Source: a virus (Duplodnaviria > Caudoviricetes). From it: a DNA stretch of 58,135 nucleotides. The notes below the pieces were generated by a model. The model did no database searches and was not told the origin of the DNA. It was given only the letters and a program-made list of their open reading frames with translations. This document shows, in pieces, positions 3,897 to 5,026 of this stretch. Within the stretch, counting starts at the first letter, position 1, and every line of letters begins with the position of its first letter. The stretch covers positions 1-58,135 of the IMG/VR virus record IMGVR_UViG_3300042526_000572; one strand, 5' to 3'. A program made the position numbers and the translations under genes.

Positions 3897-4108
3897 GTTT
3901 ACGTTATGAACAAGAGGCATCTTTGTTGATGACTCGTGAGTTTCTATTGGACTTACTGAATACAACTACTAGACCAAAGACCGTAAAGGAATTGAAGGAA
4001 CGGGCGCGAAGGTGTCTAAGGCATTACCCACCATTGGATGTGGATGGCAGTCCTATCTTTTCAAAAGATACTTTCAACCGTCTGGAAAAATCGGACAGTT
4101 CAATTTGA
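3893..4108 (+). CDS. small conserved phage protein (BPSL0761-like)
   Basis: TREFLLDL...RARRCLRHYP pattern; start at 3893 inferred from ATGA coupling. Confidence 0.55.
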   Translation: MSLRYEQEASLLMTREFLLDLLNTTTRPKTVKELKERARRCLRHYPPLDVDGSPIFSKDTFNRLEKSDSSI

Positions 4109-4120
4109 ATGTTAAATCAT

Positions 4121-4242
4121 ACCTTAACGGGTATATCATTCTTGAATGTAGGGTATTTCATGCGTTTTTTGACCTTATCGGGTATAAATAAGTCAGTTTA
4201 TAGCCTGACTTATTTGGTTAGAAAGTCAGTTCATAGGCTTAC
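4121..4242. repeat. cluster of short direct and inverted repeats
   Basis: ACCTTAACGGGTATA (4121-4135) / ACCTTATCGGGTATA (4172-4186); perfect inverted repeat AAATAAGTCAG (4186-4196) / CTGACTTATTT (4205-4215); 17/20 direct repeat 4190-4209 / 4223-4242. Confidence 0.7.
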
Positions 4243-4248
4243 ATTCAC

Positions 4249-4256
4249 TATCTTTG
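4249..4256 (+). promoter_or_regulatory. Bacteroidota -7 promoter element TATCTTTG (ncRNA 1)
   Basis: Exact TAnnTTTG followed by CA; intergenic. Confidence 0.7.
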
Positions 4257-4260
4257 CATT

Positions 4261-4392
4261 AACAGTACCCGAACGCTTACCGTAGACCAGCGTACCAGTC
4301 ATGGGTCGTTTACCCAGCTAACGGATAGTATCCAATGGCCGACCCACTGCTTTAGGATTGGGATTTCCCAGTCGGCAGTGGGTTTCTTTTTT
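4261..4392 (+). ncRNA. putative structured small RNA 1 (~130 nt)
   Basis: GC-rich non-coding stretch between a promoter and a terminator (ACCCACTGC 4342-4350 / GCAGTGGGT 4375-4383 plus T-run); stems ACCC/GGGT and ACGCT/AGCGT. Confidence 0.6.
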
Positions 4393-4400
4393 TATCTTTG
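4393..4400 (+). promoter_or_regulatory. Bacteroidota -7 promoter element TATCTTTG (ncRNA 2)
   Basis: Exact TAnnTTTG immediately after the RNA 1 terminator. Confidence 0.65.
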
Positions 4401-4404
4401 TATC

Positions 4405-4497
4405 AATCAAACTTGACACGCCTCTGATTCAAGCGCACTTTGTCGGGTCTTTTCAGCCAGTCGTAAGGTTTGTGGTGACCCTTACGGCTGGCTTTGT
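4405..4497 (+). ncRNA. putative structured small RNA 2 (~90 nt), paralogous to RNA 1
   Basis: Stem ACTTGACA (4411-4418) / TGTCGGGT (4441-4448) with G-U pairs; 14-bp hairpin AGCCAGTCGTAAGG (4455-4468) / CCTTACGGCTGGCT (4480-4493) followed by TTGTT. Confidence 0.6.
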
Positions 4498-4688
4498 TAA
4501 TTCTTAAAACCACACTTGTTAATTCACAAAAAGTTAAACTCCATTAGCCTTCAACTACTTAACTGCTTTTTTGTTAAATGTTGAACATGAAGTTTTCAAG
4601 TGCACCAGTTAGGTAGTGCAGTACACTACCCCCTAAACAATTAATTTTATTTAAGGATTTTTTACATATCACAATTAGATATTGTATT

Positions 4689-4696
4689 TATCTTTG
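4689..4696 (+). promoter_or_regulatory. Bacteroidota -7 promoter element TATCTTTG for the groES-terminase operon
   Basis: Exact TAnnTTTG about 27 nt upstream of the ATG at 4724. Confidence 0.7.
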
Positions 4697-4723
4697 TACC
4701 CGAACTTAAATACAAAAATAGTT

Positions 4724-5026
4724 ATGGTACAAGCAATAGGAACATGGGTACTCCTTAAAGACCCTCGTGAGAAGAAAGCAAAATTGGATTTAATTGTGCC
4801 TTCTGCATACAAAGAAAGTCAAGCTGCACAAGAGTTAGAGACCATTTCTCATATACTTGAAGTAGTAAGCGTAGGTGATTTAGTTCGTGACCAAAATCTA
4901 AAGATAGCTAAAACAGTTATGATCGACACAAGAGCACAATTTACAGCTATTAATACTGTAAAAGATGGGGAGGAAGAGTTTGTAATTGTTCTTCAGGAGA
5001 ATCAAATAGTAGCTGTACTCAGTTAA
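4724..5026 (+). CDS. groES: co-chaperonin GroES/Cpn10-like protein
   Basis: QAIGTWVLLK...LIVP...EVVSVG...VIVLQENQIVAVL follows the Cpn10 pattern; ~100 aa from ATG 4724. Confidence 0.75.
   Translation: MVQAIGTWVLLKDPREKKAKLDLIVPSAYKESQAAQELETISHILEVVSVGDLVRDQNLKIAKTVMIDTRAQFTAINTVKDGEEEFVIVLQENQIVAVLS

Follow-up and report, generated by a model that had tools for sequence, protein, structure and literature searches.

The IMG/VR virus record analysed here, called the window, spans 58,135 bases, is about 67% complete by estimate, and carries two tandem small-RNA units, RNA1 and RNA2. Both RNAs are homologous to bacterial RNAs linked to AbiF, the toxin gene is absent, and both are conserved and show covariation among related phages. 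We consider it probable, partly by analogy with known antitoxin mimicry, that RNA1 and RNA2 are RNA decoy antitoxins through which host AbiF proteins of two clades would stay inhibited in the course of an infection; from the comparisons below we infer that the two RNAs are transcribed, bind AbiF and benefit the phage.

AbiF is an Abi_2-family HEPN ribonuclease that acts in type III toxin-antitoxin and abortive infection and is the proposed ancestor of Cas13 (10.1101/2025.04.15.648962, PMC12737573, PMC13064643; these and the other sources are cited from their accessible parts). [quoted passage not shown] Reviews also derive the Cas13 crRNA from the AbiF ncRNA (PMC12737573). The recognition of AbiF as an RNA-antitoxin system and Cas13 ancestor dates only from 2025.

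The large terminase of the window is about 40% identical to crAss-like phage terminases (Bacteroides, Flavobacterium, Cellulophaga). The region gave no match in a blastn search of 50,697 GenBank phage records, and a homologous spacer was present in one of 80 loci collected via terL (L002, the same as L120). Parts of the region occur in 24 sequencing runs, nearly all of lake or freshwater DNA; the sole RNA-library run among them contributed one 151-nt contig at 4658-4785, outside the cassette, and contigs cannot show absence. The two units lie in the gap between the end of a small ORF (4108) and the start of a 100-aa ORF (4724), and structural or late genes lie downstream. In L002/L120, the closest relative, two additional ORFs of 100 aa and 81 aa are inserted just 5' of RNA1 (L002 514-1058), the second with a membrane-like look, and its terminase aligns to that of the window in two blocks, suggesting that the gene has taken up an insertion.

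Table 1. Features of the two-unit cassette in the window, with mean pairwise identity among 13 phage cassettes.
Feature	Position	Strand	Basis or remark	Mean pairwise identity
Unit 1 promoter-like -7 box, TATCTTTG (TAnnTTTG type)	4249..4256	+	kept 10 nt before the core in 13/13 phage cassettes	0.91
RNA1 core, putative class-2 AbiF-type antitoxin RNA	4267..4306	+	match to bacterial-only model R1; pairing	0.91
RNA1 3' hairpin (4341-4384) and U-tract UCUUUUUU, likely intrinsic terminator	4341..4392	+	predicted fold; segment 47-129 nt long, most variable part of the cassette	0.63
Unit 2 promoter-like -7 box, TATCTTTG	4393..4400	+	identity among 13 cassettes	0.96
RNA2 core, putative class-1 AbiF antitoxin RNA (abiF motif)	4412..4448	+	RF03085 alignment; box spacing ~10-11 nt	0.86
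3' hairpin of RNA2 (4455-4493) with the weak U-tract UUUGUU, a likely terminator	4455..4500	+	predicted fold
50 nt past RNA2 core				0.74
Third TATCTTTG box, promoter-like site of next ORF (4724-5026); cassette end	4689..4696	+	position
Flanks of the cassette				0.63 and 0.56

The cassette consists of two promoter-core-terminator units (4249-4392 and 4393-4500), and the promoter-like boxes that open them are of the TAnnTTTG type, the promoter type of Bacteroidota. A preliminary description of this DNA had reported two identical boxes 144 nt apart, each followed about 10 nt on by a related core, and had read them as a pair of paralogous small-RNA units that share a scaffold and have a promoter and a terminator each. 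The boxes and cores were confirmed at the sites given in Table 1, and we judge the reading to be right. Each unit does end in a long hairpin and a U-tract: both hairpins fold, with whole-unit z-scores of -3.4 (unit 1) and -3.6 (unit 2), but the U-tract of RNA2 is weak, and a simple consensus promoter and terminator scan flagged neither the units nor the hairpins. The TAnnTTTG motif occurs 56 times in the window against 72 expected, and is thus not enriched, so that a box counts only by its position, which is kept both in bacterial AbiF loci and in the cassettes of 13 phages. Since the box is unenriched and the hairpins unflagged, the case for promoters and terminators is built on comparison across records and not on the motifs by themselves. 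The box of unit 1 has a counterpart at equal distance in bacterial class-2 AbiF loci, and a box at the 11-nt distance of unit 2 precedes the RNA in the Flavobacteriales loci L399 and L396. A tRNA/tmRNA scan was empty, as the preliminary description had predicted. It had also seen no ORF here; two mechanical ORFs do overlap the cassette (4109-4285, 58 aa; 4358-4507, 49 aa with a TTG start), but neither has support as a gene.

RNA2 is built from a 6-bp stem, an A, a 3-bp stem, an 11-nt loop (CUCUGAUUCAA), the bulge CACUUU and a closing U. No Rfam family matched the window at the gathering threshold, and in a permissive Rfam scan of 4100-4730 the core aligned to positions 1-37, the full model, of RF03085. 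The preliminary description had named a confident Rfam hit as the finding that would take away the novelty of its RNA family; what was found goes halfway, as the whole model is matched but at 23.8 bits, below the gathering score of 37 bits. The E value was 0.081 for the 631 nt against all families and 0.0017 for the whole record against RF03085 alone, RNA2 being the sole RF03085 match in the record. RNA2 has the stems, the A, the 11-nt loop, the 6-nt 3' bulge, the closing U and the covariation of the RF03085 architecture, and departs from the family in position, since no Abi_2 gene directly follows it. Judged by sequence and predicted fold, RNA2 belongs to the abiF RNA family (Rfam RF03085) although it scores below the gathering threshold. 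Like the RF03085 members AbiFr (of a Prevotellaceae AbiF, 8VZ6) and RCd22 (C. difficile phi027), it has a 37-nt architecture in which the loop starts with CUCU, the bulge reads CA..U. and GGGU closes the motif.

A search pattern made of the positions common to RNA2 and the Rfam consensus recovered 81 viral and at least 120 genomic sites; among the matches listed, 173 of 201 sites have an outer stem of 6 perfect base pairs, a trait left unspecified in the pattern. Because the pattern was partly designed from RNA2, this family count is no independent test of RNA2. At the bacterial sites an ORF of about 300 aa usually begins 15-30 nt downstream, and the downstream ORFs tested were all Abi_2 (9/9). 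A narrower pattern for the RNA2 loop returned five genomic sites, including one Flammeovirgaceae MAG and three Flavobacteriales MAGs. The box, leader, loop and bulge of RNA2 match RNAs of Flavobacteriales and Cytophagales that precede an Abi_2 gene by 18-24 nt. In the Flavobacteriales locus L399, the -7 box position, the 11-nt leader and 24 contiguous core nucleotides are the same as in the window, and an Abi_2 ORF starts 24 nt past the RNA; L398/L405 and L174/L406 resemble L399 and encode full-length AbiF. The 24 contiguous nucleotides are also identical in L396. Two Flavobacteriales MAGs, L396 and L397, keep an abiF RNA and its promoter, and a genome-wide Abi_2 search of each was empty; their RNA sits 3' of the end of a putative ATP-synthase gamma gene (judged by the protein tail), and the same site in L399 holds the toxin.

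RNA1 went unmatched when 4100-4730 was scanned permissively with RF03085. Its outer stem pairs ACCC with GGGU and GA with UC around a bulged AU, its inner stem pairs ACGCU with AGCGU, its loop is 11 nt long and its 3' bulge is the 5-nt ACCAG. An exact-core pattern found RNA1 in 16 viral records. The same pattern gave 104 sites in 185,579 species genomes, rejected as chance-like (coding, high-GC, with GGGT nearby in 2/104), and thus there is no exact RNA1 copy among these bacteria, only diverged class-2 relatives. These relatives were recovered in a protein-first sample, in which 33 of 401 Bacteroidia genomes carried Abi_2: an RNA1-like motif lies in the 200 nt upstream of the gene at 13 of 32 Abi_2 loci (L405-L436). 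The bacterial class-2 layout runs from the box through a leader ending in 'caacagta', a 6-bp stem, an A, CGC, a loop of 13-14 nt starting with UUCCC or UACCC, GCG, and a 6-nt bulge (e.g. CACCAG, UCCCAG, UACCAG) to the closing stem and a U, which is the plan of RNA1. The leader 'cattaacagtacccg' is common to the bacterial locus L412 and the window, and RNA1 retains the class-2 leader, loop (UU/UA-CC...AGA.CA) and bulge (.ACCAG); the bulge UACCAG also occurs in the bacterial loci L410 and L441. RF03085 matched none of 12 bacterial class-2 loci at E<=1 and matched both class-1 loci of the same batch. The 12 distinct bacterial class-2 copies have 100% of cells paired, with four compensatory pairs.

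Model R1, built from the 12 bacterial AbiF-upstream RNAs alone, matches RNA1 at 4262-4310 with 39.1 bits (E 7.2e-11) and RNA2 with 20.3 bits (E 3e-4), and found nothing besides RNA1 and RNA2 over the 58-kb window at E<=10. All 17 cassette loci are matched by R1 as well (E<=4e-10). Class-1 motifs cross-match R1 at up to 35.5 bits, which indicates that the two RNA classes are related. RNA1 lacks one class-2 trait, the uninterrupted 6-bp outer stem: in 11 of 11 phage RNA1 copies this stem is 4+2 bp with a 1-2-nt 3' bulge and has one 5' nucleotide fewer than in bacterial class-2 RNAs. Such a divergent outer stem might mean that RNA1 binds AbiF differently, or does not bind it; the phage-specific bulge could be an adaptation, e.g. 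resistance to processing by AbiF or tighter binding. The match to R1 places RNA1 in a second class of AbiF-upstream RNA, one that is uncatalogued and escapes Rfam. A class-2 sub-pattern occurs at 33 genome loci, mostly in Prevotellaceae and other Bacteroidota with a few in Verrucomicrobiota and others, and many of these loci continue into ORFs with an AbiF-type start. The unrecognised ncRNA family of the preliminary description is not borne out, since RNA2 aligns to the full RF03085 model and counterparts of RNA1 and of RNA2 stand immediately 5' of Abi_2 genes in bacteria, and what had been taken for a variable, guide-like loop proves to be the conserved loops of two AbiF RNA classes.

Thirteen of the examined viral records contain the two-unit cassette, whose cores are far more conserved than its flanks (Table 1). 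Among 10 phage copies of RNA2, 95.6% of cells are paired, and among 11 distinct copies of RNA1 100%, against at most 36% for slid partners. RNA2 has three compensatory pairs (C-G/U-A/U-G, A-U/G-C/G-U and C-G/U-A) and RNA1 has one among the phage copies (U-A/A-U), so that covariation among homologues, which the preliminary description had looked to, is indeed present, and its remark that the closing stem survives substitutions also holds (RNA2 CUUGAC/GUCGGG, with two U-G pairs). The recurrence of the cassette, the conservation of cores over flanks and the kept pairing argue for a feature beyond chance, and indicate that the phage RNA copies are under selective constraint. The cassette phages share the upstream genes of the window, a metallophosphoesterase and an 89-aa ORF, at about 80% identity; the downstream genes differ, and the next ORF is preceded by a box of its own, 275 nt away. 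The shared upstream and different downstream genes, together with that separate box, place the cassette at a module boundary and argue against its being the leader of one gene. RNA1 stands by itself in L285 and L289 and is fused to a promoterless RNA2-like core in L290.

Searches for Abi_2 found none in the window and none in the eight other cassette records searched. Of these eight, three (G001-G003) are genomes with a completeness of 100% and a length of 34-39 kb, and one of the three has terminal repeats. The window and the eight records hence lack the toxin gene that a complete type III toxin-antitoxin system encodes with its RNA; they carry what defines a pseudo-antitoxin, a toxin-less phage homologue of an RNA antitoxin.

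Toxin-less abiF RNAs appear to be widespread in phages. Abi_2 was detected in 5 of about 73-80 other viral records with a class-1 motif, three of the five being proviruses, and in none of 10 distinct motif-bearing viral records that are at least 90% complete. An unannotated motif is present in the cultured Salicola phage CGphi29 and in four T7-like Aeromonas phages, likewise cultured (PZL-Ah8 and three related ones). In the lytic T7-like PZL-Ah8 (L470), a perfect canonical abiF motif lies at 1501-1537, between the connector and scaffold genes. The cultured Synechococcus phage S-CREM1 has a motif annotated as 'abiF sRNA' within a tRNA array, and Abi_2 searches of PZL-Ah8 and S-CREM1 found none. 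The accessible text on S-CREM1 gives its abiF RNA an RF03085 score of 51.6 bits (Table 4 there), deems it likely functional without assigning a role, and notes that Rfam lists three further phage abiF entries (PMC9964418); a 2025 review, as far as it is accessible, calls the role of this RNA unconfirmed (PMC12197685).

The two RNA classes appear to go with different AbiF proteins. Compared with PbAbiF (8VZ6), AbiF proteins adjoining class-1 RNAs score 322 bits and those adjoining class-2 RNAs 216-217 bits. On a tree of 64 AbiF proteins, RNA class required 3 label changes against about 16 after shuffling, and none of 500 shuffles was as low; the tree was made by a quick method and related rows share labels. 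On this quick tree RNA class would seem to track AbiF clade, which provides a specificity matrix ready for testing.

How might such RNAs act? RNA2 would copy the canonical abiF RNA, and RNA1 the second class, tied to other AbiF clades. Host RNA polymerase would transcribe each RNA from its own host-type promoter, and each transcript would be ended by its own hairpin. Each RNA may then fold into the AbiF-binding scaffold and occupy the presumed host AbiF, so that the HEPN site stays blocked. The toxin would be kept inhibited when infection would otherwise release it, and abortive infection would fail; the stage at which the decoy would act is proposed by analogy with ToxIN. By carrying two classes, the phage could cover two kinds of AbiF. 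A decoy of this type agrees with the 'antitoxin mimic' that the preliminary description listed among several functions; the evidence gives no pointer to its other options, a 6S-like RNA, an RNA anti-CRISPR or a guide RNA. A 6S-like RNA or tRNA-like element was rejected, having no Rfam or ARAGORN support, as was a guide RNA, there being no variable spacer-like segment. For the broader proposal that toxin-less AbiF RNAs are widespread, unrecognised RNA anti-defence genes in the phages of several bacterial phyla, assembled here into a two-class 'antidote array' disarming two AbiF clades, we see the balance as about even.

Other explanations have to be weighed against decoy antitoxins. The RNAs may be regulatory RNAs unrelated to AbiF, that is, sRNAs or attenuators of phage early/late transcription or of host mRNAs using a borrowed scaffold. 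An abiF-motif RNA of C. difficile has a further, cis-acting effect that works through premature termination (10.1101/2025.04.15.648962), the cassette of the window lies upstream of structural or late genes, and the PZL-Ah8 motif sits in the leader of the scaffold gene. However, the cassette phages differ in their downstream gene, a separate promoter box precedes the next ORF, and the parts identical to bacterial RNAs are those tied to AbiF binding in the accessible part of PMC12737573; we regard such a role as unlikely. The cassette could instead be a relic of a captured or phage-borne AbiF locus that has lost its toxin, leaving RNAs that are neutral leftovers or mere terminators or insulators at a module boundary. 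The bacterial orphans L396 and L397, which keep the RNA in genomes without Abi_2, the position of the cassette at the junction of a shared left module and variable right modules, and the strong hairpins that end both units would all fit a relic. Against this, the single-stranded loop and bulge are the best conserved parts and the terminator segment is the most variable, the promoter boxes are kept (0.91 and 0.96) and the stems are maintained by compensatory changes, two different classes stand side by side in 13 records, and the three complete genomes have no toxin remnant. These features make a relic quite unlikely.

It is also conceivable that the RNAs are antitoxins of a phage-encoded toxin outside Abi_2 (another HEPN protein or RNase), forming the phage's own toxin-antitoxin or superinfection-exclusion system. 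The few motif-bearing viral records with Abi_2 are mostly proviruses, prophage-borne AbiF is known (10.1101/2025.04.15.648962), and the window is incomplete. Yet the three complete cassette genomes contain no Abi_2 at E<=1, in a search that covered the Abi_2 family, and no conserved protein gene adjoins the cassette downstream, which leaves this explanation very unlikely. Finally, the RNAs could be anti-CRISPR or guide-like RNAs directed at Cas13-type effectors, the AbiF descendants that bind related hairpin RNAs, and Bacteroidota often carry Cas13b. The derivation of Cas13 from AbiF and of crRNA from the AbiF ncRNA, as stated in reviews (PMC12737573), would lend itself to this idea. Nevertheless, both RNAs are almost base for base AbiF-adjacent RNAs, promoter and leader included, and have no variable spacer-like part, their loops being class-specific and conserved; we find a Cas13 target hardly credible.

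Decoy antitoxins against AbiF, our preferred reading, can be compared with the few related systems. Pseudo-ToxI of Pectobacterium phage phiTE, reportedly described by Blower et al. in 2012, is said to be an RNA that mimics ToxI, the antitoxin in the type III system ToxIN. The logic is alike, a phage-borne, toxin-less copy of an abortive-infection type III RNA antitoxin. Here, in contrast, the toxin would be the HEPN protein AbiF and not ToxN, and the RNA is a hairpin with a bulge and not pseudoknot repeats. Pseudo-ToxI reportedly arose in escape mutants, whereas the type seen in the window carries two classes and is fixed in many wild phages, its role being proposed by analogy. S-CREM1 is similar in being a lytic phage with an RF03085 match and no Abi_2 gene, and unlike the window it has a single class-1 motif inside a tRNA array. 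In relation to the RF03085 systems, the window has no toxin gene, each motif makes up a separate putative transcription unit to which a strong hairpin is added, RNA2 scores under the threshold and RNA1 falls in a class that RF03085 misses. Tandem motifs like those of the window occur in RCd22, which the accessible text describes as having two motifs (10.1101/2025.04.15.648962), and in the bacterial locus L424. A hairpin at the cos site of lactococcal phage sk1 protects against AbiF (Rince 2000, cited in PMC13064643); it resembles the function proposed for the window RNAs in being a phage nucleic-acid element that counters AbiF. According to the accessible part of a 2026 review, this hairpin is the only known anti-AbiF phage element and is unlike the AbiF ncRNA (PMC13064643), whereas the window RNAs are close copies of it. 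The literature searched contained no anti-AbiF decoy role for phage abiF RNAs and no description of a second AbiF RNA class; either could be mentioned in Zilberzwige-Tal et al. 2025 or its supplements, which lay outside the search. A term search of the accessible text of a November 2026 update on phage countermeasures also found AbiF absent (PMC13728456).

If RNA1 and RNA2 are decoys, they would represent the second known kind of phage RNA antitoxin mimicry and the first RNA mimicry against a nuclease of the HEPN/Cas13 lineage, one that is apparently common and extends to cultured T7-like Aeromonas phages. The HEPN nuclease lineage from which Cas13 arose would then have natural inhibitors made of RNA. 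Such short natural RNAs might be used to inhibit AbiF-type nucleases, and as markers that predict which phages overcome AbiF.

Several minor observations concern the surroundings of the cassette and the diversity of AbiF RNAs. At 4689-4705 of the window the third TATCTTTG box runs straight into TACCCGAAC, with which the RNA1 core also begins (its initial nine bases), and the 100-aa ORF comes next; this sequence may be a scar left when an RNA1 unit recombined, and the same arrangement is found in L120. Just 3' of the RNA2 terminator (4495-4580), TTGTTAATTC occurs twice and TTGTTAAAT once. These repeats, kept in L141, L149 and L289, may be binding sites of a regulator. On the other side, 5' of RNA1 (4120-4245), CGGGTATA and AAGTCAGTT(T/C)ATAGGC are repeated and are kept in most cassette phages. 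A class-2-like motif with a class-1 motif directly after it, the order seen in the window, recurs in the unrelated phage L113 (6667-6762) and in the bacterial AbiF locus L424. Further AbiF-upstream RNA variants, with different bulges, with loop insertions of 20-30 nt or without a bulge, are found at L411, L417, L418, L409, L428, L413 and L430, and thus AbiF RNAs appear to form more than two classes.
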